A DNA stretch of 64,000 bases from Myxococcota bacterium. Its GTDB lineage: Bacteria; Myxococcota_A; UBA9042; PHBI01; JAWLBL01. Made by a program: the position numbers and the translations under genes. The notes under the pieces were generated by a model. That model was not told the origin of the DNA. It saw only the letters and a program-made list of their open reading frames with translations, and did not search any database. Of the stretch, positions 10,806-53,592 are shown piece after piece (within the stretch, counting starts at the first letter, position 1; each line of letters opens with the position of its first letter). The stretch covers positions 32,001 through 96,000 of the forward strand of contig JAWLBL010000012.1 in NCBI GenBank assembly GCA_041687695.1, read 5' to 3'.

Positions 10806-10815
10806 CCGAAACGAT

Positions 10816-10858
10816 GGGGCCGGAGCGAGCGTGCGCTGTGCCCGCTCGCTCCGGCCCC
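10816..10858. terminator. 16-bp perfect hairpin between convergent genes, likely bidirectional terminator
   Basis: GGGGCCGGAGCGAGCG (10816-10831) pairs with CGCTCGCTCCGGCCCC (10843-10858); no U-tract. Confidence 0.6.
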
Positions 10859-10898
10859 GTCCCTCGATGAGACGAACCCAGGCCTGAGGGACGTCGGA

Positions 10899-29443: not shown

Positions 29444-30805
29444 TCAGCCGCGGGTCGACAGGGCGCCCAGCATGGCGTCGACCAGCCAGATCCAGCCGCG
29501 GAAGCCCAGGGTCGGCGCGTCGAACAGCGCGTGGCGGTGGAACGACGGGAAGCCCAGCTCGAGCAGGCGCGGGCGCGGGTGGGCGTCGGTGACCGACAGG
29601 TGGGCCGTGCTGTTGCCGACGAAGAGATCGAGGCCGGGGGCGGCCTGGGCCTCGGCGACGACGCGGTCGAGCATGGTGTGCGAGGGGGCGAAGCAGGCGC
29701 GGACCGGCTCGAAGCCCTCGGGCGAGAAGTCCAGGCCCTCGGGGCGGCGGGCCGAGGCGGCGAGCAGCGGGACCGTCATGCCCAGCTCCTCGCAGGTCGC
29801 GAGGAAGCCGGGGAAGCAGTGCGGGTCGCCAGCGAAGGCGACGCGCTTGCCGGCGAAGTAGTGGGGCACGACCCACTCGAGGCGCGGGACGGCGCGGGCG
29901 AGCTCGGCCTCGCAGAGGGCGTCGGCGCGGTCGAGGCGGCCGACGGCGCGGCCCAGCCCGCGGACGAAGCGGCGGGTGGCGCGCAGGCCGAAGGGCAGCG
30001 GCAGGTCCAGGACGCGCGCGCCGGAGCGGCCGGCCAGGGCGTGGGCGGCGCGCTTGCCGTGGGGCAAGGCGACGACCAGCTCGGCCTCGCCGGCGGCGGC
30101 CAGGTCCTCGTAGCGCGAGCCGTCGAGCCAGACGGAGGTGACCTCGAGCCCGAGCGCCTCGCACAGCCGCCGCAGCTCGGCGGTGTTGGCGCGGTTGTCC
30201 TCTTCGTTGCGGTCGAAGAGGTAGCCGACCAGGGCGACCCGGCCGGGGCGCGGGGCCGCGGAGGGCAGCGCGATGTGGCGGGCGATGGCGAGCAGGGTCT
30301 CGTCGTAGCCGTCGAGCCAGTCGCCGTCGAGCGAGCGGCTGGGGACCTCTAGCATCGGGAAGGGGATCTCGGGCTGCAGATCGGCCAGGATGCGGTCGTA
30401 CTGCGTGCCGATGATCATGACGTGGGGCATCGAGCAGACGAGCGCGGCGCCGACCTTCGGGATGCGCGCGACGCGGCGGATGCGGTCGCGGACCTCGCTG
30501 CCGTCGCTCTTGATGACCCGCGAGGAGTACAAGAGCGTCGAGACGATGCGGTGCTCGCCCATGGCGTCGAGCAGGGTCGAGTTGAGGTCGTGCTTGCCGT
30601 GGACCCACTCGGCCTTGCGGTACAGGCAGTCGGGGCCGTCGATGACCGCGTAGGCGTCGGAGATGGCGTTGATGGCCGTGTACAGGCCCAGCTGGTAGGG
30701 CAGCCGGTACGAGCGGGTGTGGCGCTCGGCGGGCAGCGGCTCGAGCAGCTCGACGCCGGGGCGGTCGGTCGGGAAGACGGCCTCGGGGACGCGCGCGGTG
30801 GTCAT
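29444..30805 (-). CDS. Nitrogenase component-1-like oxidoreductase subunit (NifK/BchB-like, divergent; 453 aa)
   Basis: ATG 30805 overlaps the upstream TGA. VIDGPDC (cf. HGPxGC), CSMPHVMIIGTQYD, SLDGDWLDGYDETL, ELRRLCEALGL, LPFGLRAT, GKRVAFAGDP, LGFPSF...PTLGFRG. Confidence 0.85.
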   Translation of the reverse strand: MTTARVPEAVFPTDRPGVELLEPLPAERHTRSYRLPYQLGLYTAINAISDAYAVIDGPDCLYRKAEWVHGKHDLNSTLLDAMGEHRIVSTLLYSSRVIKSDGSEVRDRIRRVARIPKVGAALVCSMPHVMIIGTQYDRILADLQPEIPFPMLEVPSRSLDGDWLDGYDETLLAIARHIALPSAAPRPGRVALVGYLFDRNEEDNRANTAELRRLCEALGLEVTSVWLDGSRYEDLAAAGEAELVVALPHGKRAAHALAGRSGARVLDLPLPFGLRATRRFVRGLGRAVGRLDRADALCEAELARAVPRLEWVVPHYFAGKRVAFAGDPHCFPGFLATCEELGMTVPLLAASARRPEGLDFSPEGFEPVRACFAPSHTMLDRVVAEAQAAPGLDLFVGNSTAHLSVTDAHPRPRLLELGFPSFHRHALFDAPTLGFRGWIWLVDAMLGALSTRG

Positions 30806-32580
30806 GGGCGGCCTCCTTCGAGGCCGAAGGCGCTGCCGAGGTAGCGGCCGTACAGGCGGTAGAAGGGCATGGCGCAGCGGCTGAGCAGGGCCTCGGCGGT
30901 GCGGACGGCCCCGGCGGGCCCGCAGTCGACGTCGCGCAGCGAGAACACGTTCTTGCCGAGGCGGGTCAGGCGCTTGTCGAAGAAGATCTCGGAGTAGAAG
31001 GCGACCGCCGGGGCGCGGCGCAGGGCGTCCTGCAGCTCGGCGGGCGAGGCGAAGCCGTGCAGGACGTGGCCGGGCAGGGTCGGCGGCGGCGGCGGGCCGG
31101 TGGCCGTGAAGGCCAGGATGTCTACGCCGGAGAAGCCGATCTCGGCCACGAGGTCGAACAGCGGCACGCCCATCAGGCGGCTGGCGGTGAACAGGCCCCG
31201 CCAGTCGGCCCGGTCGCTGACGACGCCCAGGCGGTAGGCGCGGGCGCGGCCACGCAGGGCGTCCCAGCGCTCGGCGACGCGGGCCTCTTCGAGGTCCCAG
31301 ACGTCGCAGGCGCGCTCGAGCAGCCCCAGCGGCTCGGCGATGGCCAGCAGCCACCGGCGCGTGCCGTCGAGCCCGAAGGGGGCCGGCGGGCGGAGCAGCG
31401 GGATGTCGGGGAAGCGCTCGGCGAGGCCTTCGACGGGGCGGGCGTAGCGGTCCCAGCCGTAGGCGACGTTGAGCGCGGCCTCGCCCAGGCCCACCAGCCC
31501 CTCGGGGCTGACGTCGGGGAAGACCGAGCAGCCGATCTCGACGCCGATGGCCTCGAGCAGGCGCACCAGATCCGCGCGCCCCGGCATGTCCGGGAAGCCC
31601 AGCAGGTTCACGCGGTTGGCCACGCGGCGGGACCCGCGCACGCGGGGGTCCGCGCTGAGCTTTTGCAGCAGGACGTCCTGCGGGTTGTTCTCGTTGCCGA
31701 CGACCACGATGGGTACGCCGATGCGGGTCTGGGCGCGGGCGGCCGCGGCCTCGAGGTCGTCGCCGGTCACCATCGGGACGCAGCTGTTGTAGACGACGAC
31801 CATGTTGGGCTTGGACGGCAGGTCGGCCACCCCCTCGAGCACCTCTTGCAGCTTGGCGTCGCCGCCCTTGATGACGTCCAAGTCCGACAGATCGGTGATG
31901 AGCCCCTCGTCGGCGGGGCGGCGCTCCTTCTGGGTGTTCGGCGCGACGGTGTTGAAGAACCCGACGGTGCCTCGGTCGGCCACGGTCGCGTTGAAGCTGC
32001 ACTCGTGCTCTTCGTGCTTGACCGACAGGGCGTCGCCGTCGATGGCCTCGCACACGGCGCGGTACAGCTCGCGGTGCTCGACGAAGGTGCGCCACGCCTT
32101 GCCGGTGCCGTACGAGTAGAACAGGCTCTCGGCGTCGTCCCAGGGCAGCGCGAAGGCGTCGCCGCCCTCGGGGACGACCAGGCCGGCGAGCTGGGCCAGC
32201 GGGACCTGGCCGTAGCGACGGATGAAGCGGCGCACGGCCTTGTCGAGCTCGGGGTGGGGCTCGGCCGAGCGGGTGTGGACCACGGCGAAGCCGGGGGCCT
32301 CGAGCCAGCCGCTGCGGTCGGGCGGGATGAAGGCGAAGTCGACGACGGCGCCCGGCGCGACCTCGGCCCGCAGCTCGATCTCGCCCTCGGCGCCGATCTG
32401 CATCGACTGCAGGCGCCCCTCGAGGCCCAGCGCCTTGCCGAAGCGGGCCAGCGAGTCGGGGCCGGCGGTGGTGCCGGGGCGCGCGGGCGGCGGGGCGGCC
32501 GGCCTCTCGGACACGGCCGGGGCCGCCTGGTCGGGGGCCTCGGGCGCGTAGCCGGCCAGCTCGGGGAAGAGCGTGCTCAC
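30802..32580 (-). CDS. Nitrogenase component-1-like oxidoreductase subunit (NifD/NifE/BchN-like, divergent, with N-terminal extension; 592 aa)
   Basis: AVCEA, KHEEHEC, ITDLSDLDVIKGGDAKL (cf. STDLxExDVVFGGExKL), NSCVPMVTGDD (cf. TCxxxxIGDD), VNLLGF, APFGLDGTRRWL. Confidence 0.82.
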   Translation of the reverse strand: MSTLFPELAGYAPEAPDQAAPAVSERPAAPPPARPGTTAGPDSLARFGKALGLEGRLQSMQIGAEGEIELRAEVAPGAVVDFAFIPPDRSGWLEAPGFAVVHTRSAEPHPELDKAVRRFIRRYGQVPLAQLAGLVVPEGGDAFALPWDDAESLFYSYGTGKAWRTFVEHRELYRAVCEAIDGDALSVKHEEHECSFNATVADRGTVGFFNTVAPNTQKERRPADEGLITDLSDLDVIKGGDAKLQEVLEGVADLPSKPNMVVVYNSCVPMVTGDDLEAAAARAQTRIGVPIVVVGNENNPQDVLLQKLSADPRVRGSRRVANRVNLLGFPDMPGRADLVRLLEAIGVEIGCSVFPDVSPEGLVGLGEAALNVAYGWDRYARPVEGLAERFPDIPLLRPPAPFGLDGTRRWLLAIAEPLGLLERACDVWDLEEARVAERWDALRGRARAYRLGVVSDRADWRGLFTASRLMGVPLFDLVAEIGFSGVDILAFTATGPPPPPTLPGHVLHGFASPAELQDALRRAPAVAFYSEIFFDKRLTRLGKNVFSLRDVDCGPAGAVRTAEALLSRCAMPFYRLYGRYLGSAFGLEGGRP

Positions 32581-33647
32581 CCCAGCAGATCCGATGGGCT
32601 CAGGTGCCGCGCCTCGTTGGGGAAGGCGCCGCGCAGGCGCGCGATGGCCTCGTCGACGCTGACCAGGCCCAGCCGGACGGCGCGGCCGCCGTTGTCCAGC
32701 TCGGTGGCGAAGACGCGGCCGCCGTCCTGGGCGCCTCGGGCGCGCCCCATCAGGCGCGAGGACGACACCAGGGCGCCGGCGGCCTCGGGCGGGGGCTCCT
32801 TGGCGGCCGCGGCGGCCTGCCCGCCCTGGGGCCGGATGAAGCGGCGCTGGGCCAGCTCGTAGAACTCGGTCTCGCTCAGCGGCGTCGGCAGCGGCAGGCT
32901 GCTCGCGTCCAGCGCCCGCACGTCCTGGGCGATCTGCCCGTAGCAGCGCGCGATGGGCGAGGCGGGCGCGTGCTCGACGACGGTCATGCGGCGGTACTCG
33001 GCGTCGCGGACCAGCGGGTCGCGCGGGATGTAGCCGATGATGCGGGCGCCGATGAGGGCGGCGAAGCGCTCGAGCATCGCCCGGTCGGCGGCGTTGTCCT
33101 TGAGGTTGTAGACGATGCCCGCCAGCGCGATGCCGTTGGTGGCGTAGTGGACGACCGCCTTGGCGATGTTGTTGGCCGCGTACAGGGCCATCAGCTCTTC
33201 CGAGGCGACGATGACGACCTTCTCGCCGACGCCGCGCCGCAGCGGGGCCGCAAAGCCCCCGCAGACCACGTCGCCCAGCACGTCGTACAGCGCCACGTCG
33301 TAGCGGTCCGGCGACAGGAGCCCGGCCTCGTTGAAGATCTCGAGCATGCGGGTGATGCCGCGCCCGCCGCAGCCGACCCCCGCGCCGGGCCCGCCCGCCT
33401 CGACGCAGTCGACGCCCAGGGGCGAGCGGGTCACGATGTCGTCGGGCTTGACGCCGCGCACCTGCGAGATGCGGTCGACGACCGGCTCGATCATCCGCCC
33501 GCCCAGCAGCGCCACGGTCGAGTCGTGCTTGGGATCACAGCCGACGTGCAGGACCCGCTGGCCCTCGGCGGCCAGGCTGGCGCTGATCCCGGTGGCCACC
33601 GTGGACTTGCCGATGCCGCCCTTGCCGAAGATGACGATGCGCTCCAC
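32577..33647 (-). CDS. Nitrogenase iron protein family ATPase (NifH/BchL/CfbC-like) with C-terminal extension (356 aa)
   Basis: GTG 33647 after AGGGG. FGKGGIGKST, GCDPKHDST, CVEAGGPGAGVGCGGRG, YDVLGDVVCGGFAAP, MALYAANNI; both [4Fe-4S] Cys ligands present. Confidence 0.95.
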   Translation of the reverse strand: MERIVIFGKGGIGKSTVATGISASLAAEGQRVLHVGCDPKHDSTVALLGGRMIEPVVDRISQVRGVKPDDIVTRSPLGVDCVEAGGPGAGVGCGGRGITRMLEIFNEAGLLSPDRYDVALYDVLGDVVCGGFAAPLRRGVGEKVVIVASEELMALYAANNIAKAVVHYATNGIALAGIVYNLKDNAADRAMLERFAALIGARIIGYIPRDPLVRDAEYRRMTVVEHAPASPIARCYGQIAQDVRALDASSLPLPTPLSETEFYELAQRRFIRPQGGQAAAAAKEPPPEAAGALVSSSRLMGRARGAQDGGRVFATELDNGGRAVRLGLVSVDEAIARLRGAFPNEARHLSPSDLLG

Positions 33648-33770: not shown

Positions 33771-34868
33771 TCAGCGCGGCGCGCAGCGGCTCAGGGCGGC
33801 GTCGCGCGCCGATCCGGCGACACCGCCGGCCTCGAGGGCGGCGCGGGCCTCGTCGCAGCGCCCCAGCTTCACCAGCACGTCGCCGTGCAGCCGCGACAGC
33901 TCCGCCCGGCGCGAGGCGAAGTCGGCCCCCTCGCGCAGGCTGCGGACCACCCGCTCGGCCTCCTCGAGCCGCCGCGCCCGCACCAGCGCCTCGAGCCGGC
34001 TCAAGGTCGCCTCGCGCCACAGGGCCCCCCGAGGCCACCGCGCCAGGTACCCCTCGAACCCCGCGACCGCGGCCCCGTGCTCGCCCGCCTTCAGCGCCGC
34101 CTCCGCCGCCTCGTAGGCCGCCAGCTCGGCCGCCAACGACGACTCGGCCGCCGGCGCCTCGACCGCCTCCGGCTCGCCCGGCGCCGTGGCCTGCTCCGCC
34201 GGCTCGTCCGAGGGTTGCGTCTCGCCCACCGCTGGCTTGCTGCCCACCGTCCGCCGCGCCCGCGCCGCTGGCGCCTTCTCCTCGTCAGCCTCAGCCTCCG
34301 GCTCGGCCACGGCCACGCGCTCGGCCTCGACCACGGCCTCCGGCTCGGCCACGGCCACGGCCTCCGCCTCGGCCACAGCCTCCGCCTCGGCCACGGCCTC
34401 TGTCTCGGCCTCGGCCACAGCCTCCGCCTCGGCCACGACCTCCGCCTCGGCCACGGCCACGCGCTCGGCCTCGGCCTCCCGGTTCGCCACGGCCACGCTC
34501 TCGGCCTCCGCTTCGCGCTCGGCCACCGCTGCTCGCTCGACCGCCCCCTCCCCCGCCGTCACGACCAGCACCCCGGCGACCACGCCGGCGACCACCAGCC
34601 CCAGCACGCCCGCCGCCTTGGCCCCCAGCGCCCCTCCGGCCGCCTGCGGGTCGAACCGGGGCGCCTGCCCCGCCGCGGCCTCCGCCAACACCCGCCGCCG
34701 CAGCTCGGGCAGCGCGGCGTCCACCTCGGCCCCGACCCGCGCCTGGGCGGCCCTCAGGTCGAGGCCCGTCCGCGCCGCGAAGGCCGGATCGTCGGCCAGC
34801 CGCGCCGGCGCCGGCGGCGACGACTTGTGGGGCGTCCCTGGGTGCCTCGTGCCCGTCGTGCGCTTCAT
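33771..34868 (-). CDS. Putative anti-sigma factor: single TM, acidic AEAEAV repeat stalk, C-terminal TPR-like domain
   Basis: ATG 34868 overlaps the sigma stop. TM GVLGLVVAGVVAGVLVV; SLAAELAAYEAA...YLARWPRGAL...E, the myxobacterial ECF-partner pattern. Confidence 0.75.
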   Translation of the reverse strand: MKRTTGTRHPGTPHKSSPPAPARLADDPAFAARTGLDLRAAQARVGAEVDAALPELRRRVLAEAAAGQAPRFDPQAAGGALGAKAAGVLGLVVAGVVAGVLVVTAGEGAVERAAVAEREAEAESVAVANREAEAERVAVAEAEVVAEAEAVAEAETEAVAEAEAVAEAEAVAVAEPEAVVEAERVAVAEPEAEADEEKAPAARARRTVGSKPAVGETQPSDEPAEQATAPGEPEAVEAPAAESSLAAELAAYEAAEAALKAGEHGAAVAGFEGYLARWPRGALWREATLSRLEALVRARRLEEAERVVRSLREGADFASRRAELSRLHGDVLVKLGRCDEARAALEAGGVAGSARDAALSRCAPR

Positions 34869-35443
34869 GGGGCCTCTCCTTCGACCAGGGCGCGCTGGCG
34901 CCACAGCCTCTCGAACGTGCGCCGGGCGTCGTGGAGCCGGCGCCAGACCGTGCCTTCGGGGACCTCGAGCAGGGCGGCGACCTCGCGCCCTTCGAGCGCC
35001 TCGAGCTCGTAGAGGACCAGCACCTCGCGCTGCGGCAGCGGCATGCGCGCCAGGCAGTCCTCGAGCCGCCGGGCGCGGTCGCGGGCCTCGAGGCCGTCGT
35101 CCGGGCGCGGGGCGGCGGGGGCGACCTCGCGCGACAGCAGGCGCTCGAGGAGGCCGCGCTGGCGCTGGCGCGCGCGGTGGTGGTGCTGGACCAGGTGGAC
35201 GGTCGTCCGATACAGCCACGCGCGGGCGTCGGGCGCGGCGGCCAGGGCGTCGCGGCGGCGGTGCGCGACCAGGAAGGCGTCCTGGACGAGGTCCTCGGCG
35301 GCGGCCTGGCTGCCCGTGAGGCGGCGCGCGACGCGGACCAGGAAGGCGGCGTGCGCGGCGAAGAGCGCGCCCAGGTCGGCGAGCGCCGCGGAGGTCGCGG
35401 CGGGCGGCGGGTCGGGCGCGGGGTCGGGGGCGGCTGCGGTCAC
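34865..35443 (-). CDS. ECF RNA polymerase sigma factor
   Basis: AEDLVQDAF, ARAWLY (region 2); REVLVLYELEALEGREVAALLEVPEGTVWRRLHDAR (region 4); GTG start at 35443. Confidence 0.92.
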   Translation of the reverse strand: MTAAAPDPAPDPPPAATSAALADLGALFAAHAAFLVRVARRLTGSQAAAEDLVQDAFLVAHRRRDALAAAPDARAWLYRTTVHLVQHHHRARQRQRGLLERLLSREVAPAAPRPDDGLEARDRARRLEDCLARMPLPQREVLVLYELEALEGREVAALLEVPEGTVWRRLHDARRTFERLWRQRALVEGEAP

Positions 35444-37542: not shown

Positions 37543-40287
<2,745 letters not shown>

Positions 40288-40388
40288 GGCGTGGGCGTGG
40301 GCCGGTCGGTCGCGGTGGACCGCCGATGATGCCGTGCGAGCGCCGCGGGCCCGAGAGCGCGGTCACGCCAGCCGGTCGCGACCGTCGA

Positions 40389-44114: not shown

Positions 44115-44134
44115 GCCAGGTCGGGTAGGCAGCG

Positions 44135-44788
44135 ATGGGGAACAAGCCCTTCATGAGCCGCCGCGGCTTCTTCCAGCGCCTGTTCGGCGCCGAGGGCCGC
44201 GTCGAGACCACGTTCTTCGCCCTGCAGCTGGCGCTCGAGGTGGGCGCCGGGTCGGATCTGCGCGACCGGCTGCACGGCGTCATCGACGCGCCGGTGACCG
44301 GGGCCGAGACCCCGGCGGACAAGCGGCGCTTCTACAAGCGGCTGACCAGCATCGTCCACGAGGCCGAGCCGTACTACGAGCTGGGGTTCTTCCAGTACGA
44401 GACGGACGCCGAGGCGGCGCGCGAGGCGTTCGGGACTTGGGTCCGCGAGATCGAGGCCAGCGTCGCGACCGAGGACGACGAGGTGGGCGAGGACGTCGAC
44501 GGCTACCACCGGCTGTCGAGCGAGTCGACCTACGTCGTGGTGTCGATGCTGTTCCTGATGCACGCCAAGCATCCGCTCCATGGGGCCGAGACCGACGAGG
44601 ACGAGCTGTACTCGCGGCCGGGGATGGGCAAGCTGGTCGACAGCGTCAACCGCCTGGACTTCGAGGCGCTCGAGGCGGACGCGGCCTTTGTCATCCCGGG
44701 CAGCGCGCAAGACGGGCTGTCGCACATGGATCTGATGGACGAGGGCTGGGGCTACCTGAAGATGCTCAAGAGCGACATGGTCGCCTGA
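44135..44788 (+). CDS. DUF1517-like protein
   Basis: FALQLAL...AREAF...YVVVSMLF...IPG..QDGLS..DL...YL pattern resembles DUF1517; N-terminal SRRGFF. Confidence 0.6.
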   Translation: MGNKPFMSRRGFFQRLFGAEGRVETTFFALQLALEVGAGSDLRDRLHGVIDAPVTGAETPADKRRFYKRLTSIVHEAEPYYELGFFQYETDAEAAREAFGTWVREIEASVATEDDEVGEDVDGYHRLSSESTYVVVSMLFLMHAKHPLHGAETDEDELYSRPGMGKLVDSVNRLDFEALEADAAFVIPGSAQDGLSHMDLMDEGWGYLKMLKSDMVA

Positions 44789-44927
44789 GCGGCGCCGCCC
44801 GACGCGCCGGTCGGCCGCGGGGCGCGCGGCTTGACGGCGGGGCTGGGGCCCGGCTAACAGGGGAGGCGCCCGCGGCCTCGCAGCGGGCGCGAGACGCTGG
44901 GCTCGAGACCAGCGGCGAGGAGTTCGG

Positions 44928-46745
44928 GTGCGCAACGTCCGCCTGGCGCCCTTCACCGGCGACGACCTCATCTATCGGTTCTGCAGCGTCGCGGGCGCCG
45001 CCGGCCGAGCCATGGTCCCCTTCGAGGCGCTCGCGGCCCAGGTGGACGCCCTGGACGTCGAGCGCGCGCCCCTGGTGACGCTCGCCGGCAGCGACCCGCT
45101 CGAGCATCCCGACTTCCCCGAGCTGGTGGCGCGTTGCCGCGCGCGCGGGCTGACCCGCTTTCGCCTGGTCACCGACGGCTACGGCCTCGCCTCGGACACG
45201 GTGATCGCCTTCCTGCGCGACAGCGGCATCGACGAGGTCCGCGTCGTCTTCCCGACCCACGACCCGCGCACCTACGCCCGCGCCATGCGCACCCGCACCC
45301 GCTTCGACGCGTGCGCCGCCGGCCTCCGCAAGGCGGCCGAGAGCGGCCTGGAGACCCACGTCGTCGTCCCGCTGACCACGTTCGCGCGCGAGCACGCCGA
45401 CGCCTTCCTCGACTGGCTCCGCCCGCTGCCCCTGTCGGGCCTGCTCGTCGAGGCGCCCGAGGTCCACCGCGTCCCCGAGCGCTTCCGCGACGCGCTGCTC
45501 CCCTACGCCGACGCCGCCCGCCTCACCGCCGCCCTGTTCGCCGAGAGCCGCCGGCAGCGCCGCGTCATCGGCGTCTTCGAGCGCTGGATCGTCCCCCCGT
45601 GCGGCGCCGACGGCGCCCTCGACGACTACGGCGACCTCTTCAACCAGCGCTACAAGCACTACCGCGCCCACGCCGACACCCCGACCACGCGCGTCGCCGC
45701 CTGCGCGACCTGCGACCTCACCTCGGCCTGCCCCGGCGTCGAGCCCGACTACCTCGCCGTGTACGGCGACGCCGCCCTGCGCCCCATCCCGCTCGACGAA
45801 GCCAACACCTGGTACACCAAGCCCATCAACCGCCTCGACGAGATCCCCTTCAAGCGCGTCTCGGCCTTCGACAACCAGGAGCGCTCGGGCAAGCGCGGCC
45901 TCCTCCGCATCAACGGCCACTGCAACATGGGCTGCTCCTTCTGCTTCGTCGACCTCAGCCAGCCCAACGTCGACGTCGCCGCGCTCACCGCCGAGCTCGA
46001 CCGCCTCGCCGCCACCGGCGTCACCGAGCTCGTCCTCTCGGGCGGCGAGCCGACCCTCCACCCCGGCCTCCCCGAGGTCGTCGCCCACGGCAAGCGCCTG
46101 GGCTTTGCCACCATCGAGCTCCAATCCAACGGCGTCCGCCTCGCCCACCCCGACTACGCCGCCCAGCTCGCCTCCGCCGGCCTCGACGTCGCCTGCCTCT
46201 CCCTGCACTCCCACGACCCCGACGTCTCCGACCGCATCACCAAGCGCCCCCGCGCCTTCGCCAAGACCGTCCAGGGCCTGCACAACCTCCGCGCCCTCGG
46301 CGTCCAGACCCGCATCTCCCACGTCATCAGCCGCCTCAACTACCGCGATCTCCCCGCCTTCGTCCGCTTCGCCCGCGCCGAGTTCGCCGACGGCCCCCTC
46401 GACATCTGCTTCGCCATCGCCCAGGAGATCTCCAGCCAGACCTCCACCTGGGTCCTGCCCACCTTCACCGACATCAAGCCCTTCGTCCGCGAGGCCCTCG
46501 ACCACTGCCTCGCCCACGGCGTCACCTTCAGCGGCCTCATCGGCCAGGGCAGCTACCCGCCCTGCATGCTCGACGGCGACCTCCGCTACTACGAGCGCGC
46601 CCTGCAAGAGGTCCACCTCAGCCGCGACACCCCCGACTGGGTCAAACCCGACCGCTGCCGCACCTGCGCCTTCGACACCCGCTGCCTCGGCGTCCGCCGC
46701 TCCTACGTCGCCACCTACGGTGACGCCGAGATCCGCCCCTTCTGA
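44928..46745 (+). CDS. Tandem-domain radical SAM protein (degenerate N-terminal rSAM, intact C-terminal rSAM)
   Basis: Domain 1: DDLIYRFC, GSDP, TDG, CATCDLTSACPG. Domain 2: CNMGCSFC, SGGEPTLHP, QSNG, CRTCAFDTRCLG. Confidence 0.9.
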   Translation: MRNVRLAPFTGDDLIYRFCSVAGAAGRAMVPFEALAAQVDALDVERAPLVTLAGSDPLEHPDFPELVARCRARGLTRFRLVTDGYGLASDTVIAFLRDSGIDEVRVVFPTHDPRTYARAMRTRTRFDACAAGLRKAAESGLETHVVVPLTTFAREHADAFLDWLRPLPLSGLLVEAPEVHRVPERFRDALLPYADAARLTAALFAESRRQRRVIGVFERWIVPPCGADGALDDYGDLFNQRYKHYRAHADTPTTRVAACATCDLTSACPGVEPDYLAVYGDAALRPIPLDEANTWYTKPINRLDEIPFKRVSAFDNQERSGKRGLLRINGHCNMGCSFCFVDLSQPNVDVAALTAELDRLAATGVTELVLSGGEPTLHPGLPEVVAHGKRLGFATIELQSNGVRLAHPDYAAQLASAGLDVACLSLHSHDPDVSDRITKRPRAFAKTVQGLHNLRALGVQTRISHVISRLNYRDLPAFVRFARAEFADGPLDICFAIAQEISSQTSTWVLPTFTDIKPFVREALDHCLAHGVTFSGLIGQGSYPPCMLDGDLRYYERALQEVHLSRDTPDWVKPDRCRTCAFDTRCLGVRRSYVATYGDAEIRPF

Positions 46746-46799
46746 CCGCCCCGGCGCCCTCCTTGCCGCGCCGCCCCTCCCTCGGGCATCCTCCCCCTC

Positions 46800-48644
46800 G
46801 TGAAGCGCGCCTCGCCAGCCGGCCGCACGGCCCTCCTCACCCTGCAGAGCCACGGGGACCGCTCCTTCCTCGACGGCCGCGACGAGGCCCTGCTCTCCGG
46901 CGATCTGCGCGCCCTCGGCCTGCCCGCCGACATCGTCCACGCCATCCTCGACCCCCGCGGCGGCGACGGCCCCGCCGGCCTCCCCGCCCAGGACCGCCTC
47001 GCGGCCACCCTCGCCGCCTACGACGTCGTCCTCTTCGAGCGCGTCTGGGACCCCGCCCTCGTCGCCCGCCTCCGCGCCGCCCACCCCACCGCCGTCTGGG
47101 TCTGGTGGCAGGGCGAGCACGCCCTCGCCGACCCGCCCGCCGACTGGGTCGTCCTCGGCACGCCGCGCCACACCGTCCCGGCCCTCCTCCGCTTCTTGCG
47201 CCACCAGACCGCCGCCCCGCCCGCCGAGGCCCGCTTCCGCCAGGGCGACGCCTTCACCCCCGCCGCGGACGCCCGCCCCGCCCCGCGCCTCCCCCTCGGC
47301 TTCACGCCCAACCTCCACCCGGTGGTCGTCAACCCCGAGGCCGCCCCCGGCTTCCGCACCTTCTCGGTCGTCGGCAACCAGGGCTGCCCCTACCAGGCCG
47401 ACGCCCGCGCCAACCCGCTGTACGCCGGCGTCACCATCCCCGACGGCCTCGGCCGCGGCTGCGCCTTCTGCACGACCGGCAACCACTACGTCGGCGCCCC
47501 CGCCGCCGAGACCGCCGCCCGCGTCGCGGCCGAGATCCGCTACCTCCGCCAGCACGCCCCCGCCCTCGACCACCTGGTCCTGCTCGACCAGAACCCGTTC
47601 GCCTACCTCACCGAGGTCGTCGAGGGCCTCGCCGCCGAGGGCACCCCGCCCTTCACCCTGCTGCTCGAGACCCGCGCCGACTGGTTCCGCCGCTCGCGCC
47701 GCCGCTTCGAGCAGGCCCTCGCCGCCGCCCGCGAGGCCGGCTTCACCCTCGCCCCCTTCCTCATCGGCATCGAGAGCTTCTCGCAGACCGAGCTGGACCG
47801 CTTCAACAAGGGCATCACCGCCGAGGAGAACCTCGCCTTCCTCGAGACCCTGTGGGAGTGGCGCGACCGCTTCGCCCCCGCCCTCACCCTCGACCACGCG
47901 GCCTTCGGCTTCATCCTCCTGTCCCCCTGGACCACCCGCGCCGACCTCCGCGACAACCTCGCCGGCATCCGCCGCACCCGCCTCGACCAGCTCCGCGGCA
48001 GCCTGCTCGTCTCGCGCGCCCGCCTGTACCCCGACACCGCCCTGTACTACCTCGCCCAGCGCGACGGCCTGTTGCTCGACGCCTTCACCCACCCCGACGA
48101 GGACAACTCCGCCCGCTACGGCTACTACCCCTCGCAGCCCTGGCGCTTCCTCCACGACGACGTCGCCCACTTCTCGGCCCTCGCCGCCGAGCTGACCCGC
48201 CGCCTCGGCAGCCGCGACCAGGTCCTCGTCTTCCAGACCCTGCTCGACGCCTTCGACGCCGCCGACGACTGGCGCGACGTCACGGCCGACCAGATCCTGG
48301 CCGCCCTGCGCCCCGCCCCCCAGGCCGCCTCCTCCGACGCCACCGCCGCCTCCCCCGAGCTCCGCGCCCGCTTCGCCCGCCTGATCCGCCCACTGCAGCT
48401 CGACGCCCCCTTCGCCGACGGCTGGCGCTTCGGCCCCCTCGCCCTCTCCGAGGGCCGCCTGCGCCTGCGCCTCGACCACGACGACGAGCCCGCCCTCCAG
48501 GTCGACCTCGCCCCGCGCAAGAGCGGCCCCCGCTACGCCGCCTCGCGCCACTACGACATCGCCTACCTCAGCCCGTCGCTCTCGCCCGCCCAGGCCCGCG
48601 CCCTCGACGCCGTCTGCCAGGCCATCGTCGCCAACGACCGCTGA
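46800..48644 (+). CDS. Radical SAM protein with split C-x24-C-x2-C motif, resembling the B12-dependent class
   Basis: GCPY...GRGCAFC; IGIESFSQTELDRFNKG; GFILLSPWTT; about 180-aa N-terminal domain. Confidence 0.8.
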   Translation: MKRASPAGRTALLTLQSHGDRSFLDGRDEALLSGDLRALGLPADIVHAILDPRGGDGPAGLPAQDRLAATLAAYDVVLFERVWDPALVARLRAAHPTAVWVWWQGEHALADPPADWVVLGTPRHTVPALLRFLRHQTAAPPAEARFRQGDAFTPAADARPAPRLPLGFTPNLHPVVVNPEAAPGFRTFSVVGNQGCPYQADARANPLYAGVTIPDGLGRGCAFCTTGNHYVGAPAAETAARVAAEIRYLRQHAPALDHLVLLDQNPFAYLTEVVEGLAAEGTPPFTLLLETRADWFRRSRRRFEQALAAAREAGFTLAPFLIGIESFSQTELDRFNKGITAEENLAFLETLWEWRDRFAPALTLDHAAFGFILLSPWTTRADLRDNLAGIRRTRLDQLRGSLLVSRARLYPDTALYYLAQRDGLLLDAFTHPDEDNSARYGYYPSQPWRFLHDDVAHFSALAAELTRRLGSRDQVLVFQTLLDAFDAADDWRDVTADQILAALRPAPQAASSDATAASPELRARFARLIRPLQLDAPFADGWRFGPLALSEGRLRLRLDHDDEPALQVDLAPRKSGPRYAASRHYDIAYLSPSLSPAQARALDAVCQAIVANDR

Positions 48645-48695
48645 ACGACCGCTGAATGGCGGCCCCGACGCGCCGGCCCCGATCGTCCGGCCGGC

Positions 48696-50468
48696 TCACC
48701 CGAACGGCGCGACGAACCCCAGCCCCGGGTCGGTCCGCGACAGCTCGAAGACCAGCGCGTCGCCCCGCCACACCGACAGCCGCGCCTCGTCCAGCCGCAG
48801 CCGGTCCCCCAGCGCCAGCGCCCCGCCGAACCGCGCCAACGCCCGACTCGCCGGCCCTGGCACCGCCACCCCGCGATGGCGCACCGCCCCGTCCGCCTCG
48901 ACCGCCCCGTCGAACACCAGCTGGTGGTCGTGGTCGAAGTACAGCACCGGCCGCCCCAGCCCCGCCCGCAGCCGCGCCGCCGCCCCCGGGTGTGCCCGCT
49001 CCAGCTCGCCCAGCGCCGCCCGCGCCTGCGCCAGCGCCGCCGGGCAGTCGTACCGGCACGGATAGAACGGCAGCAGCATCACGCTCAGGTTCGCCAGCTC
49101 CCACGGCCACGGCCCCGGCGCCCGCGTTCGCCCCGCCGTCGCGTAGCGGTTGCGCGTGTTGTTCGCGCGGTCGTCCTGCGCGGCGAAGGCTTCGACGCAG
49201 CAGGGCGGGTAGCCCATCAGCGCGCCCATCTGCCGCAGCTGCGCGCTGGGGTCACCCTCGGCCTGCAGCCGCGCCGCCCGCCGCGCCAGCTCGGCCTCGC
49301 GCGCCACGTACAGCTCGACCCGCGGCTCGCCCCGGTCGCGCCGGTCCACCCACGCGTCCTGCGCGCCCACCTCGACCCGCCGCTCGCGCCGCTCGACGTG
49401 CACCGGCCCGCCGCCGTCGGCGAACGGCGCCACCGCCCGCGCCTCCTCCCCCGGCCGCACCGTCAGGAAGGCCACCGGCTTGAGCCCCGCCCGGAACAGC
49501 CACAGCTCGGCCTCCTCGCTGGGCAGCCCCACGTCCAGCGCCGGCGCCGCCGCCGCCGCGGGCACCTCGCCCCGCAGCCCGAACGCCTCCAGCGGCCCCG
49601 CCCCGCGCGCCATCGCCGCGCGCGCCGTCGCGAACCGCCGCCGCCCCGGCGCCAGCCGCCCCGGCAGCGCCTCCAGCGCCGCCGCCGTCAGCCGCGCCAC
49701 CTCGGCCGCCTCGACCAGCGAGTCCCCCGCCGCCTCGCCCCCGGCCAGCTGCCCCAGCGCCCGCGCCTCGCCCCCACCCAGCTCGGCCGTCGCCGGTCGC
49801 CGCTGCGTCTTCGCCGCCCCGCGCGCCGGCCTCACCGTCACCGCCTCGGCCCCGTCCTCCCAGCGCCACTGCGCCCCGGCCCGCGCCCCCTCGAGCCGCA
49901 CGTCCACCCGCGCCCCGCTGGTCACCACCCGCAGCGCCACCGGGAACCCGGCCTCCAGCGCGACCTCGAAGCGCGACGCCCCGACCTGCCGCGCCCCGAC
50001 CACCCGCGCCCCCGGCGCCACCCGCCGCGCCAGCGCCAGCGCGTGCCACAGGCACTCCTCGGGGTCCCCTTCGCGCGCCTCGGGCAGCCCGCGCACCTCG
50101 ATCTCGGCCCGCGTCACCTCCGCCCCGCCAACGAACCGCTCGCAGAACGCGCGCCCGCTCAGCGTCACCCACCCGTGCGCCACCCGCACGCCCGCCGCGC
50201 CCTCCGGCAACGCCGCCTGCCCCAGCGCCAGCCCCAGCGGCGCCTCGACCACCGCCGGACGCCCCGCCTCGGCCAGCGCCAGCGCCGCCTCGAGCCCCGC
50301 CCGCGGCGGCAACGCGACCGCCACCGCCGCCCCGGGCCAGCGCGCCAGCGCCTCGTCGACCCGCCCGACCTGCCCGACCACCCGCAGGACGCCGCTGCCC
50401 GCCGCCACCTCCGCCCAGGCCCGCGCCCGCCGCCCCTGCCCGACGACGACCAGCTCGACCTCGCTCAC
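48696..50468 (-). CDS. Degenerate Gfo/Idh/MocA-like domain fused to a DUF483-like Cys-motif domain (590 aa)
   Basis: GTG 50468 overlaps the upstream TGA. LVVVGQGRRA, VVEAPL (EKP variant); C-terminal GLKP, LMGYPPCCVEAF, PFYPCRYDC. Confidence 0.72.
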   Translation of the reverse strand: MSEVELVVVGQGRRARAWAEVAAGSGVLRVVGQVGRVDEALARWPGAAVAVALPPRAGLEAALALAEAGRPAVVEAPLGLALGQAALPEGAAGVRVAHGWVTLSGRAFCERFVGGAEVTRAEIEVRGLPEAREGDPEECLWHALALARRVAPGARVVGARQVGASRFEVALEAGFPVALRVVTSGARVDVRLEGARAGAQWRWEDGAEAVTVRPARGAAKTQRRPATAELGGGEARALGQLAGGEAAGDSLVEAAEVARLTAAALEALPGRLAPGRRRFATARAAMARGAGPLEAFGLRGEVPAAAAAPALDVGLPSEEAELWLFRAGLKPVAFLTVRPGEEARAVAPFADGGGPVHVERRERRVEVGAQDAWVDRRDRGEPRVELYVAREAELARRAARLQAEGDPSAQLRQMGALMGYPPCCVEAFAAQDDRANNTRNRYATAGRTRAPGPWPWELANLSVMLLPFYPCRYDCPAALAQARAALGELERAHPGAAARLRAGLGRPVLYFDHDHQLVFDGAVEADGAVRHRGVAVPGPASRALARFGGALALGDRLRLDEARLSVWRGDALVFELSRTDPGLGFVAPFG

Positions 50469-53449
50469 GACCCGACGCGCTCGCGCAGGGGCCCCGACGC
50501 GACCCGCATGGGCGCCGCCGCCCGGTCGAAGGGCGCCCCGGCCTCCTCCAGCGCCCGCAGCATCTCGGACGCCAAGCGCATCGCCGCCACGCCCGCCGCG
50601 CCGTCGGCCGGCGACGCCCCGCCCCGCAGGTGCTCGCGCCACGCCGTCAGCAGCCGCTCCAGATCCCCGCCCCGCGGCGGCGTCCGCGTCCGCCCGCCGG
50701 CCGCCTCGGTCACCTCGAGCTCGTCGCGCCCGTCCTCGCGCACCCAGGTCAGCCCGCGCCCGTCGGCGAACCGCACCCCGACCCGCAGCCCGTCGGCCGG
50801 CGCGTCCAGCGCCAGCTCGATCGTCGCCTCGACCCCGGTCCGCCCCTGCCCCCGGCTGGTCACCACGACGCGCTCGGGCCGCCCGCCGCCCGACGCGCTG
50901 GCCCTGCGCGGCGTCAGCGGCTCGTCGGCCAGCGCCAGCGCCACGTCGCCCAGGTGGATCAGCAGCTCGTACAGCGCCCGTCGCGACCACGCCCGCAGGC
51001 TGCCCGGCGAGGTCGCCGTCGCCCGGTGCACCACCTCGATGGCCACCGGCCGCCGCGGCCCCTTGCGGTCGCCCAGCGCCTCGAGCAGCGCCGCCACGCC
51101 GCTCGACGCCCGCAGCTGCTGCGCCACCGACAGCCGGCCCGCGCCCTCGGCCGCCAGCGCTTCGGCCTCGTCCAACGCCCCCGCCAGGGGCTTTTCGACC
51201 AGACAGGGCAGCCCGCGCGCCAGCGCCACCCGCGCCGCCTCGGCGTGGTGGGCGGTCCGCGACGCGACGATCACGGCGTCGGCCGCGACCTGGTCCAGCA
51301 GCGCCCCCAGGTCGCGCGCCCGCGGCAGCCCCTCGGGCAGCTCGGGCAACTCCTTGTCCGGCGCGTGGGGCGAGGCGACCCCGACCAGCGCGAACCCGCC
51401 GACCCGCGCCATCGTCCGCGCGAACAGCAGCGCCCGCGTCCCGGTCCCGACCAGCGCCACCCGCACCGGCGCCCCGCCTCCCGTCGAAGCCGCCTCGGCC
51501 GCCGCCTCGCCCGGCAGCGGGATCTCGTGGCTGCGCGGCATCCGACCGTCGCCGTAACGCAGCGCCTCGCTCAGCCCCAGGTCGCCGCGTCCCGACTCGG
51601 CCTCGGCCTTGGCCTCGGCGGGCGTCAGCTTCGGCCCCGGCAGCGCCACCAGCTCGTCCGTCCCGTAAAGCGCCGCGTACTGCTTCCACACCCCGGTGCA
51701 CACCTGCTCGAAGCGGCAGTCGGCGCACGCGGGCCCCTGCTGCTTCTGGTGCGCGTCCTCGGTCAGCGCCCCGCTCACCGACGACAGGATGTCGCTCAGC
51801 GGCAGGAACTCGCCCAGCTGGCACGGCGGCACGCCCTGCCGCGACCCGACGATGACGCCGATGCCCAGCTCGACCGCCCGCGCCAGCGCGCGCTTCAGGT
51901 ACGGCACCACCTCGGAGTACCGCGGGACCTTGTCACCCAGGTGCTCGAGCGCCTTGTACTGCGGCGTCACGAAGGCCAGCGACACGCCGATGCGGTCGCC
52001 GAACTCGGCGTGCAGCCACTCGAAAAAGCGCACCAGCGACCGGTAGTTCGCGCCCGACACCACGTGGTTGACGTCGATGCGCAGCCCCTCGTGGCGGGCG
52101 AACAGCTTCAGCGCCGCCACGGTCCGGGCGTGGTCGCCGATCTTGCGCGTCTGCAGGCGCGACAGCGGCTCGTCGTGCGCGTGCAGCGACACGAACAGGT
52201 GCGTCAGCCCGGCCTCCATCAGCGCCTCGACCTTGCGCGGCTTGTCCAGCAGCACCGCGTTGGTCACCAGCTCGACCCGCGACACGCCCAGCCGCCGCGC
52301 CACCTTCACGTACGAGGCCAGGTGCCGCGACAGGGTCGGCTCGCCGCCGCTGAACGAGATCTGCTGGACGCCCGCCCGCGCCAGGCGCGAGATGCGCCGC
52401 AGCATCTTCCCCGGGTCCTCGTAGACGTTGCGCGAGGTCTCGTTGGCGCTGCAGAACCAGCAGTCCTGGTTGCAGTGCACCGTCGGCCGCAGCACCGTCA
52501 GGAAGGCCGTCCGCGCCGCCTGCCGCTTCGTCGCGTCCCACCCCTGCCCGCCCGACACCTGCGGCAGCGCCGGCAGGGGCGCCAGCCCGGCGTCGCCGTG
52601 CCGCGACAGGTACAGCGTCGTCGTCCCGGGGCACATCCGCGCCGCCGGGCAGCCGTCACAGACCGCGCCCAGCGACGACGTGTCGCGCCGCGGCATCGGG
52701 CGGCCGCCGCGCTCGCTCAGCAGGCCCTCGGGCACGGTGACCTGCCCGGCGTCGTCGACGGTGGCCAGGGCGCACAGCGGCACCCCGTCGCGCTCGTTGA
52801 ACGAGACCTCGAGCCCCCGCTCGCGCGCGAAGGCGATGGCCTGCCCGAGCGGCCCGCGCACCCGGTCCCAGCGCGGCGGCGACGCCTTGGCCGAAACCTT
52901 GCCGTCCACCGAGCGCAGCGCCACGGGCGAGTACAGCCGCAGCCGCCGCGCCTCCGGCGCCACCTCCAGCACCTGGGTCAGCAGCGCCCGCAGGTCCTGC
53001 ACGGCCGGGTCCAGCACGGGCACCTCGAGCGAGACCTCGAGCCCGGCCTCGACCAGCGCCTTCAGCCCGGCCAGGCCCGCCGCGTGGGCGCCCCGCACCC
53101 GCGCGATGGCGTCGTGCACCTCGGGCCGCTCGCTGGCGACGAAGAACACCACCCCGTCGACGCCCAGGGCCGCCAGCTCGCGCGCCCGCCCCGGCGCCGC
53201 GTAGGCGACGCCGTTGGTCCGCACCCGCACGCTGCGCCAGCCGCCCTCGCGCGCGCGCCGCACGTGCTCGCCCAGATCCGTCTGCAGGGCCGCCTCGCCG
53301 CGCACCTCGAGCAGCGCCCCGCCGCGGTCCATGGTCCGCAGCACCTCGGCCGGCGCCGTCTCGCGCGCGCGGCAGTCACAGACGGGGCACGCCAGCGTGC
53401 ACCCCGCCGCCAGGACCACCGTCGCCTCGTACGAGCTCGATCGCGCCAT
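50465..53449 (-). CDS. Double radical SAM plus Gfo/Idh/MocA oxidoreductase fusion (994 aa)
   Basis: CTLACPVC...RTNG...CDGCPAARMCPG; CNQDCWFC, SGGEPTL, VTNA, CADCRFEQVCTG; then VRVALVGTG and LVEKPLA. Confidence 0.9.
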   Translation of the reverse strand: MARSSSYEATVVLAAGCTLACPVCDCRARETAPAEVLRTMDRGGALLEVRGEAALQTDLGEHVRRAREGGWRSVRVRTNGVAYAAPGRARELAALGVDGVVFFVASERPEVHDAIARVRGAHAAGLAGLKALVEAGLEVSLEVPVLDPAVQDLRALLTQVLEVAPEARRLRLYSPVALRSVDGKVSAKASPPRWDRVRGPLGQAIAFARERGLEVSFNERDGVPLCALATVDDAGQVTVPEGLLSERGGRPMPRRDTSSLGAVCDGCPAARMCPGTTTLYLSRHGDAGLAPLPALPQVSGGQGWDATKRQAARTAFLTVLRPTVHCNQDCWFCSANETSRNVYEDPGKMLRRISRLARAGVQQISFSGGEPTLSRHLASYVKVARRLGVSRVELVTNAVLLDKPRKVEALMEAGLTHLFVSLHAHDEPLSRLQTRKIGDHARTVAALKLFARHEGLRIDVNHVVSGANYRSLVRFFEWLHAEFGDRIGVSLAFVTPQYKALEHLGDKVPRYSEVVPYLKRALARAVELGIGVIVGSRQGVPPCQLGEFLPLSDILSSVSGALTEDAHQKQQGPACADCRFEQVCTGVWKQYAALYGTDELVALPGPKLTPAEAKAEAESGRGDLGLSEALRYGDGRMPRSHEIPLPGEAAAEAASTGGGAPVRVALVGTGTRALLFARTMARVGGFALVGVASPHAPDKELPELPEGLPRARDLGALLDQVAADAVIVASRTAHHAEAARVALARGLPCLVEKPLAGALDEAEALAAEGAGRLSVAQQLRASSGVAALLEALGDRKGPRRPVAIEVVHRATATSPGSLRAWSRRALYELLIHLGDVALALADEPLTPRRASASGGGRPERVVVTSRGQGRTGVEATIELALDAPADGLRVGVRFADGRGLTWVREDGRDELEVTEAAGGRTRTPPRGGDLERLLTAWREHLRGGASPADGAAGVAAMRLASEMLRALEEAGAPFDRAAAPMRVASGPLRERVGS

Positions 53450-53592
53450 CCCTCACCGCCCCCGCGCGGCGGGGCTGCTCCCTCGGCCCGGCCCGGCGCC
53501 CCCGTGCGCGGGCGCGCTGCTGCGTCCAAGCGCCACGGCGGCACCCTACACCATCGCCCCGAGCGAGTCACACTCGCGCGGCGCCGCCGCGC

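Follow-up and report, generated by a model that had tools for sequence, protein, structure and literature searches.

A Group VI nitrogenase-like operon (nflHDK) in a Myxococcota genome and its possible link to radical SAM enzymes

The operon and its affiliation to Group VI

We analyzed a stretch of 64,000 nucleotides from a Myxococcota bacterium (GenBank assembly GCA_041687695.1, contig JAWLBL010000012.1, positions 32,001 to 96,000 of the forward strand), which as a whole is called the window throughout the paper. It carries an operon of three genes for a nitrogenase-like (NFL) reductase with an Fe protein (H) and two larger subunits (D and K), here termed NflHDK. The genes, and an add-on module inside the second of them, are as follows.

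32577..33647, minus strand: nflH-like gene, NifH-family Fe-protein ATPase of 356 amino acids (PF00142, P-loop, both cluster Cys)
30802..32580, minus strand: nflD-like gene, alpha-type PF00148 subunit of 592 amino acids; module, then linker, then catalytic core with the invariant C194 and C267
29444..30805, minus strand: nflK-like gene, beta-type PF00148 subunit of 453 amino acids with one invariant Cys, C60 (DGPDC)
32185..32484, minus strand: module added on within nflD at residues 33-132, with beta-alpha-beta4-alpha2 topology and unassigned fold

Due to a G+C content of approximately 75% the window contains many spurious long open reading frames (ORFs). All three frames showed a strong third-position GC periodicity, and a self-trained gene caller also found H, D and K as consecutive minus-strand genes. 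Reading of the sequence confirmed the translational coupling described in the first-pass annotation, with the overlap GTGA between the H stop and the D start and the overlap ATGA between the D stop and the K start. Purine-rich ribosome-binding sites were present 8 nucleotides before the K start (GGAGG) and before the H start (AGGGGGA). For H the GTG at 33647 was taken as start codon, with the TTG at 33731 as a possible alternative. None of the RNA runs was listed as containing the operon; only four runs with approximately 5-6% of the sampled words were found.

The description of the products as a nitrogenase-like H-D-K reductase was upheld by one PF00142 and two PF00148 matches. The H protein matched PF00142 with an E-value of 3e-83; in the longer form starting at TTG the match covers residues 31-295. 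It is an intact Fe protein, as had been proposed, with the P-loop GKGGIGKST, the switch motifs, the motif CDPKHDST and the equivalents of both Cys97 and Cys132 in GVGCGGRG and DVVCGGFA; its identity to NifH from annotated plasmids ranged from 38.7 to 43.3%. Both large subunits matched the PF00148 model, K over its full length (1e-42) and D in residues 202-444 only (8e-25). Membership in characterized families was judged by the cut-offs of the NCBIfam equivalog models (nifH/D/K/E/N, BchL/N/B/X/Z, CfbC/D), and all models tried scored far below cut-off for H, D and K. The H protein reached 277.5 bits for nifH (cut-off 394), 276.6 for CfbC (402), 199 for BchL (345) and 175.5 for BchX (331). For the large subunits, 27.8 bits were obtained with nifD (654), 35.5 with nifK (427), 43 with BchN (420), 34.7 with BchB (490) and 38.9 with BchZ (529), and D scored 21.6 bits with the CfbD model TIGR03282 (268.4).

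The genome-wide searches covered the 7.97 Mb assembly, which is 99.3% complete. They returned two PF00148 matches (D and K), a single strong PF00142 match (H) and no match for NifB (TIGR01290). No further PF00148 gene able to encode NifE or NifN was present in this genome, and no nif or bch pathway was detected elsewhere in it by the PF00148, PF00142 and NifB searches. The absence of nif and bch genes, first observed for the window, consequently extends to the genome as a whole. The product of the operon is almost certainly not a nitrogenase: ligands of the iron-molybdenum cofactor (FeMo-co) and NifB are absent and the nif scores lie far below the cut-offs, in agreement with the earlier view that N2 fixation is not its purpose. 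Nor is it DPOR, COR or CfbCD, as likewise proposed earlier, with Bch and Cfb model scores below their cut-offs.

For phylogenetic placement, NifHDK(E), BchLNB and BchXYZ from annotated plasmid records served as references, with Group IV (CfbCD, Mar, Isr, Nfa) outside the reference set. The H tree was calculated with the careful method for all 36 H-like proteins of the window and the named loci together with four references. The window protein grouped with that of a Nannocystaceae metagenome-assembled genome (MAG) with a support of 98/89, inside a clade of nine rows (98/94) and a clade of ten rows with a long form of H (95/97). The sister group of this long-H clade consisted of five rows of the Elusimicrobia type (81/92, not starred). 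A branch of 1.41 (99/99) set off the NifH references, while BchL and BchX sat on very long branches and their placement was unsure. The PF00148 tree, calculated with a quick method and SH-aLRT support only, was built on nine references, 24 of the 58 K-like rows and 24 D-like rows, of which 22 came from the 51 D-like proteins and two were D parts of H-D fusions; rows were the key loci and a random draw. All D-like rows formed one clade (SH-aLRT 100) and all K-like rows another (97), each including the Elusimicrobia genomes GWA2_69_24 and RIFCSPLOWO2_12_FULL_59_9, and all Nif and Bch references fell outside both. The subclade of the window was sister to Elusimicrobia sequences in the D clade (91) as well as in the K clade (94). 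Hence, in neither tree did the subunits nest within Nif or Bch clades.

The family is widespread. Among 1.84 billion representative proteins, 810 clusters matched the D-like family at E<=0.001, of which 199 remained at the stricter threshold of E<=1e-30. In a sample of 401 genomes of the window's phylum, D-like matches were found in 57 genomes, and in 46 of the 340 high-quality ones; these counts come from a stricter first look and are a floor. Many of the genomes carried several paralogs, with an identity of just 37% for the best match. When species-representative genomes were searched with an alignment of eight K rows, 63 loci were obtained, mostly from Myxococcota MAGs. At least six of these records bear Elusimicrobia in their titles (including GWA2_69_24, RIFCSPLOWO2_12_FULL_59_9, RBG_16_66_12, a groundwater MAG and MAG 13), and a Desulfobacter MAG, an Oligoflexales MAG and Enhygromyxa salina SWB007 were also among the loci. 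The closest locus was that of the Nannocystaceae MAG, with 71% identity for H, 46% for D and 57% for K; Nannocystaceae and Enhygromyxa hold the nearest relatives.

A preprint by Meheust et al. (2020; bioRxiv 10.1101/765248) describes "Group VI" nitrogenase paralogs in Elusimicrobia from groundwater, two Gracilibacteria and fourteen aquatic Myxococcales genomes, and it names GWA2_69_24. The first-pass annotation had referred to a divergent clade from just these three lineages, in agreement with the paper. According to section 7 of a recent review (Chem Rev 2026, PMC13474568), Group VI is the one nitrogenase-like group without a characterized member, and nothing newer on its function was found in the literature searched. 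The window operon clusters with at least six Elusimicrobia-titled records including GWA2_69_24, its H protein keeps the P-loop and both Cys, its D and K subunits are very divergent, without FeMo-co ligands and with no more than four of the six P-cluster Cys, and NifB is missing, all as in Group VI. We therefore assign NflHDK to the Group VI NFL enzymes with high confidence; the operon is a genuine new member of a known, functionally uncharacterized group.

Within Group VI the window copy differs in belonging to a myxobacterial subclade in which H carries a C-terminal tail of approximately 90 amino acids beyond the NifH fold and in which gene contexts vary, without adjacent radical S-adenosylmethionine (SAM) genes. 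More than 100 protein clusters showed the same long form of H at 52-78% identity, with sources including Nannocystaceae, Byssovorax and Enhygromyxa. The long-H operon of E. salina SWB007 (NZ_PVNL01000142.1, locus L084, H-D-K at locus positions 6817-11353) is 61% (H), 35% (D) and 49% (K) identical to that of the window. This is a named strain, which we take to be in culture. The same section of the review states that culturing methods are lacking for Group VI hosts (PMC13474568), in contrast to the inclusion of this named strain in the window's subclade.

Metal-cluster ligands and subunit structure

Conservation of Cys was determined for D in alignments of 22 and 90 rows and for K in an alignment of 22 rows. 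In both D alignments only C194 (H-x-x-x-E-C) and C267 (C-V-P..G-D-D) were invariant. From the sequence three cluster-type Cys had been proposed in this subunit; two of them stand, but the Cys of the "AVC" motif is not conserved in either alignment. In the 22 K sequences C60 (DGPDC) was the only invariant Cys, next to the invariant D50, K64, D73 and D162. Alignment with the references related the metal ligands of NifD and NifK to the following residues of the window proteins.

NifD C62: no Cys
NifD C88: NflD C194
NifD C154: NflD C267
NifD C275: Gly
NifD H442: Arg
NifK C70: NflK C60, via the flanking DGP/HGS motif; BchZ has GC there
NifK C95: Ile
NifK C153: Pro
NifK S188: the invariant NflK D162

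The predicted loss of the NifD Cys275 position was thus verified, with a Gly in LNVAYGWDRY. Three of the six P-cluster Cys positions are kept (NflD C194, NflD C267 and NflK C60), a pattern that, as judged from the aligned sequences, does not fit a P-cluster or an M-cluster. Because only three interface Cys are kept and the FeMo-co ligands and NifB are absent, the cluster at the D/K interface is probably of the [4Fe-4S] type with one non-Cys ligand, instead of a P-cluster plus M-cluster arrangement. NflK D162 and NflD H189 are candidates for the fourth ligand. DPOR (BchL/BchN/BchB) and COR (BchX/BchY/BchZ) offer a parallel, with an ATP-driven Fe protein, a heterodimeric PF00148 core and an interface cluster held by three Cys and probably one non-Cys ligand. 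However, the Cys are split differently, two in D and one in K compared to three in N and an Asp in B; in the DPOR ligand numbering, BchB Asp36 occupies the position of NflK C60 and NifK C70. Furthermore, the window D subunit has an extra N-terminal module and the genome lacks bch genes.

The AlphaFold model of D (pLDDT 88.8, pTM 0.84) had methylthio-alkane reductase (MAR; 9d9u_A, E 7e-18), NifD and NifE as best solved folds, matches which at the level of a predicted model represent the common alpha-subunit fold. MarHDK (Group IV-C; PDB 9d9u, 9fmg) is likewise an NFL enzyme that does not fix N2. In contrast to the window system, which has neither, MAR is described with P-cluster ligands and a NifB-type complex cluster in the section of the review considered here (PMC13474568); the two systems were compared by structure match and description only.

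A third relative is CfbCD, the Ni-sirohydrochlorin a,c-diamide reductive cyclase of Group IV-B. The window H protein scored about as high with the CfbC model (276.6 bits) as with nifH; nevertheless, the CfbC and CfbD cut-offs were not reached, the window system has a K subunit, and its host is a bacterium without methanogenesis context. For CfbCD a persistent complex of Fe protein and catalytic subunit is reported in the cited section (PMC13474568). Fusions of H and D in Elusimicrobia-type loci point to a similar arrangement. In these loci a NifH-like and an NflD-like part are joined in one ORF of 768-994 amino acids, with H in residues 1-272 followed by a linker or one to two module copies and then the D core. 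The positions recorded within the loci are listed below.

L098, 7619-9988; L112, 7755-10061; L120, 1649-4027; L072, 135-3119: H-D fusion ORFs
L112, 3967-5706; L080, 1696-3675: further H-D fusion positions

These natural fusions suggest that a persistent complex of Fe protein and catalytic subunit may also be formed in Group VI.

The NflD module, radical SAM proteins and the HxsA4 peptide

The operon is a self-contained H-D-K unit, and gene context is not conserved in the long-H subclade. Pfam scans of six long-H loci (L059, L060, L062, L063, L084, L117) showed varying neighbours and no radical SAM gene; of the other long-H loci, L039/G249 had none either, and the G109 locus had a divergent one. 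Short-H loci, on the other hand, contained many radical SAM enzymes, B12-radical SAM enzymes and methyltransferases. The operon had been called stand-alone at first. This is true of its immediate neighbours, none of which is a radical SAM gene, but at a distance of 11-20 kb the window encodes three radical SAM proteins, one of which has a domain in common with D.

46800..48644, plus strand: radical SAM protein of 614 amino acids (PF04055, 6e-7) with the module at its C-terminus (48324-48632)
44928..46745, plus strand: radical SAM protein of 605 amino acids, HxsC/MoaA-like (PF04055, 7.5e-34), possible partner
50465..53449, minus strand: fusion of a radical SAM protein and a GFO/IDH/MocA oxidoreductase, 994 amino acids (PF04055, 2.8e-32; PF01408, 9e-13), possible partner

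When the hidden Markov model (HMM) of the NflD N-terminus was run against six-frame ORFs of the whole genome, the only match besides nflD itself was the protein at 46800-48644, which is encoded 14 kb from the operon (residues 516-608, E 8e-10). A shorter module HMM of approximately 100 positions gave weak extra matches; the motif CxxxCxxC was present in five of the nine next-best ORFs compared to 193 of 12202 ORFs of at least 300 amino acids. Within the named set the module HMM matched all 51 D-like proteins. The module also occurs at the N-terminus of radical SAM proteins of about 436 amino acids beside NFL genes (L053, L087, L107, L046, L045, L094, L050) as well as in small stand-alone proteins, and some D subunits carry it as a tandem. 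Of four other long-H genomes searched, three encode it at the C-terminus of further proteins, most with a radical SAM motif and far from the operon; in the Nannocystaceae MAG no further copy was found.

Modelled alone, the module adopts the beta-alpha-beta4-alpha2 topology given above with a pLDDT of 94.9. When 63 copies of the module were scanned with Pfam at E<=10, no family recurred; the hits were isolated, each in a single member (best E 0.005). VIA-align against 48,161 chains yielded no clear solved fold, the best Z of 4.7 being for Mdm12 and KA1-type domains, and Foldseek against PDB returned no match at E<=0.001. A module found in several enzymes of one pathway would most simply recognize a common substrate or carrier. 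That NflHDK and radical SAM enzymes share a substrate is, in our judgement, moderately probable. For the two possible partners at 44928..46745 and 50465..53449 the link is weak. Their best NCBIfam family is HxsC4, with 133 and 128.8 bits, respectively, against a cut-off of 500.

The three radical SAM genes belong to a larger cluster (41348-54816 and 60584-61909), which also encodes a glutathionylspermidine-synthase-like ATP-grasp protein, a 590-amino-acid protein without match and two more proteins without family match; two CotH kinase genes and a VWA protein flank it. No clear candidate for a precursor peptide was found in this cluster and its counterparts, where an all-against-all BLAST of small ORFs, run with composition correction off, gave low-complexity noise, and the intergenic gaps contained no convincing small ORF.

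Elsewhere in the 8-Mb genome exactly one ORF with three or more consecutive HxS repeats was found. It is located on another contig (C19) and encodes a peptide of the HxsA4 type from the His-Xaa-Ser (HXS) systems, with a conserved leader followed by approximately 17 HGS repeats ending in Trp (128.6 bits, cut-off 55). The HxsA4 cluster extends over C19:27799-37652 (locus L131:5800-15653), where six radical SAM genes follow the peptide gene; one of them is a true HxsC4 (545.3 bits, cut-off 500). Two others are fusions, one with a B12-binding-type domain and the other with a methyltransferase, and the locus as a whole represents a large HXS cluster of type 4. Among the five CxxxCxxC-bearing weak matches of the shorter module HMM was the radical SAM gene that comes first after HxsA4, with an E-value of 0.064 genome-wide and 2.5e-5 within its neighbourhood.

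HxsA4 scored over the cut-off in 125 of the 401 phylum genomes. By hand tallies with E<=1e-15 as definition of a strong D-like match, it was present in 44 of 46 genomes with such a match compared to approximately 81 of 355 others. The two D-like genomes without HxsA4 comprise one that is 79% complete and one with a sub-threshold match. Inside the window's class all 33 D-like genomes carried HxsA4 (others approximately 31 of 49), and outside this class 11 of 13 from seven families (others approximately 50 of 306). Four of five named NFL genomes had HxsA4 as well, including E. salina SWB007, on another contig than the operon, and the Elusimicrobia genome GWA2_69_24; in the latter the fetched HxsA4 and NFL stretches did not overlap and linkage was not seen. 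A complex prediction for the NflD module with the HxsA4 leader (residues 1-72), made without controls, gave a score of 0.00 and is no evidence either way.

The type-1 HXS system has been reported as an anti-phage system of E. coli, in which HxsA is matured by the radical SAM enzymes HxsB and HxsC with a +8 Da change on the SHRSS motif (Nat Commun 2026, PMC13128918). With HXS the window genome has in common a repeat peptide of the HxsA4 type and a true HxsC4; HxsA4 is present in nearly all NflD genomes, and HxsC4 is the best-scoring family, below cut-off, of the window radical SAM proteins. In contrast, the HXS system as described (PMC13128918) does not include an NFL enzyme, and the type-4 peptide has approximately 17 HGS repeats. 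No paper linking NFL enzymes to His-Xaa-Ser systems was found in the literature searched. HxsA4 is the leading candidate for the shared substrate, though as such it remains rather doubtful.

Proposed function, alternatives and gene neighbourhood

Taking all observations together, the best explanation would be that NflHDK is a Group VI ATP-driven reductase which, together with radical SAM enzymes, acts on a shared and probably peptidic substrate. We hold this explanation tentatively, a little short of calling it probable. By analogy with the family, ATP would be hydrolyzed by a dimer of NflH bridged by a [4Fe-4S] cluster, which would pass low-potential electrons to the cluster at the NflD/NflK interface. 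The NflD module may be a shared domain for recognition of substrate or carrier; if so, NflHDK and the module-bearing radical SAM enzymes would act on one substrate. With the ribosomal His-Gly-Ser repeat peptide HxsA4 as leading candidate for it, NflHDK might reduce a bond or ring made on HxsA4 by the radical SAM enzymes. The more specific proposal that Group VI enzymes are peptide-modifying reductases, recruited by the module to HxsA4, itself related to the effector of the anti-phage HXS system, for the ATP-driven reduction of a cross-link or an imidazole-derived ring made by radical SAM enzymes, has to be regarded as a little more doubtful than HxsA4 as substrate alone.

We are conscious that several observations weigh against this interpretation. 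Separation of the operon from Group IV rests on NCBIfam scores only, the tree references being Nif and Bch. HxsA4 and the NFL operon lie on different contigs (C19 and C12) and are unlinked here, the connection of NFL and HXS consisting of statistics and a weak domain match. HGS-repeat ORFs with the same leader were found inside only three of 83 fetched NFL loci of approximately 20 kb (1.30 Mb in total, three different records), with several loci being the same contigs fetched again and thus not independent. The co-occurrence is confounded by kinship, as related genomes are not independent, and the signal at class level is weak. Moreover, approximately 81 genomes had HxsA4 without NflD, and in the window's own class HxsA4 is common anyway. 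Radical SAM genes with the module were located off the HxsA4 contigs in three long-H relatives, and the six radical SAM genes that accompany HxsA4 all fell short of a module match of genome-wide significance (best E 0.064). For the module neither an RRE/PqqD-like nor another known fold was listed, by which RRE/PqqD is not excluded. Finally, orthology of the window radical SAM proteins to NFL-adjacent ones was rejected as evidence; the protein at 44928..46745 was only 25-35% identical to those of 28 named loci, and the scores were of a generic HxsC/MoaA type.

The published proposal for Group VI is a tetrapyrrole substrate (bioRxiv 10.1101/765248), and the first-pass annotation had similarly considered an ATP-driven reductase possibly acting on a novel cofactor. 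Such an enzyme would reduce a C=C bond of a porphyrinoid ring, as DPOR, COR and CfbCD do, and thereby yield a novel cofactor. These three characterized non-nitrogenase relatives indeed act on tetrapyrroles, while MAR and isethionate reductase (ISR) do not (PMC13474568, section considered), and Meheust et al. refer to neighbours with B12-binding and HemN_C domains (bioRxiv 10.1101/765248). B12-binding radical SAM genes adjoin NFL genes in some Myxococcota loci (L041, L043). The pattern of three Cys and one other ligand also recalls the NB-cluster of DPOR. However, methylation of peptides and lipids is a common role of B12-binding radical SAM enzymes, and the aligned Bch references contain nothing that corresponds to the D module found on radical SAM enzymes. 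In the window and 15 related loci, whole or in part, visual inspection of Pfam matches, without a targeted search, showed no tetrapyrrole-specific family (chelatase, HemN_C, Cob/Cbi, Bch). The reductase assignment stands, but the cofactor or tetrapyrrole idea finds no support in gene context as inspected, and we consider it unlikely.

Slightly less likely still is a role as tailoring reductase in non-ribosomal secondary metabolism (of lipid, sugar or polyketide-like type), with the D module docking to a carrier protein or scaffold. Myxobacteria are rich in secondary-metabolite pathways. Related loci contain genes for methyltransferases, carbamoyltransferases, glycosyltransferases, enoyl-CoA hydratase, CoA-transferase and SDR proteins, and long-H loci provide GDSL lipases and P450 genes, as detailed below. 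Nevertheless, apart from radical SAM genes no such neighbour recurs in most loci, the long-H context is not conserved at all, and Pfam scans showed no carrier-protein, polyketide synthase or non-ribosomal peptide synthetase domains beside the operon.

A reductase cleaving C-S or similar bonds of small molecules for nutrient acquisition, like MAR or ISR (Group IV-C/F), is improbable. Among solved structures the D model matches MAR of R. rubrum best (9d9u_A, TM 0.74 on target), and H scored with NifH/CfbC-type models as high as with any other, but NifD and NifE match the D model almost equally, so that the MAR match reflects the shared fold only. In addition, MAR keeps the P-cluster Cys and uses a carbide cluster made by NifB/MarB (PMC13474568, section considered), whereas NifB is absent from the window genome and the equivalents of Cys62, Cys275 and His442 are missing. 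Genes for sulfur metabolism or transporters did not flank the operon. A genuine but very divergent N2-fixing nitrogenase, for which the order of the genes (H-D-K) and an Fe protein similar to NifH could be cited, is practically ruled out by nif equivalog scores far below all cut-offs, the absence of FeMo-co ligands, of NifB and of any PF00148 gene for NifE or NifN, and the retention of only three of the six P-cluster Cys positions.

The following features lie upstream of nflH.

33771-34868, minus strand: anti-sigma-like protein
34865-35443, minus strand: extracytoplasmic function (ECF) sigma factor (Sigma70_r2 and r4_2; TIGR02937, 82.5 bits, cut-off 42.9)

This pair (33771..35443) ends 123 nucleotides before nflH. 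As a dedicated regulator it was rejected, no homologue being found beside the operon in any of the compared loci. The anti-sigma-like protein contains a long acidic repeat region of Ala, Glu and Val and a YbgF/TPR-like C-terminus (TIGR02795, 27.7 bits, below cut-off). Similarly, none of the window neighbours (ECF sigma factor, anti-sigma-like protein, DsbA, P-type ATPase, WD40) had a counterpart by the operon in the loci compared. In two Byssovorax loci genes for GDSL-type lipases/acylhydrolases follow K, and in two other long-H loci a cytochrome P450 gene is found just beyond K; both types are absent from the window. The positions of GDSL or P450 genes noted in long-H loci are given below.

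L060, 11400-12554
L062, 8153-10641
L084, 13066-14487
L063, 6059-7486

Two further features of the window were observed. A MerR-type regulator with a B12-binding domain is encoded at 12487-13401, an architecture known from CarH-like light-responsive regulators. A short direct repeat is located at 40177-40329 in the gap before the P-type ATPase gene, where the plus strand, seen only as translation, reads twice VGVGCGLRRWWFGGFGHG.

For Group VI as a whole, the compact H-D-K form of a subclade that includes the named strain E. salina SWB007 may provide an experimental host. The three interface Cys give a concrete cluster model with specific residues to mutate, and the N-terminal module of NflD, which is also found on radical SAM enzymes, offers a handle on the substrate at the level of a domain. 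If the proposed peptide reduction is true, NflHDK would bring a protein substrate into the nitrogenase superfamily for the first time. Should the tie to HxsA4 be real, the known substrates of the superfamily (N2, tetrapyrroles and organosulfur compounds) would extend to proteins, with a possible connection to a newly described anti-phage system.

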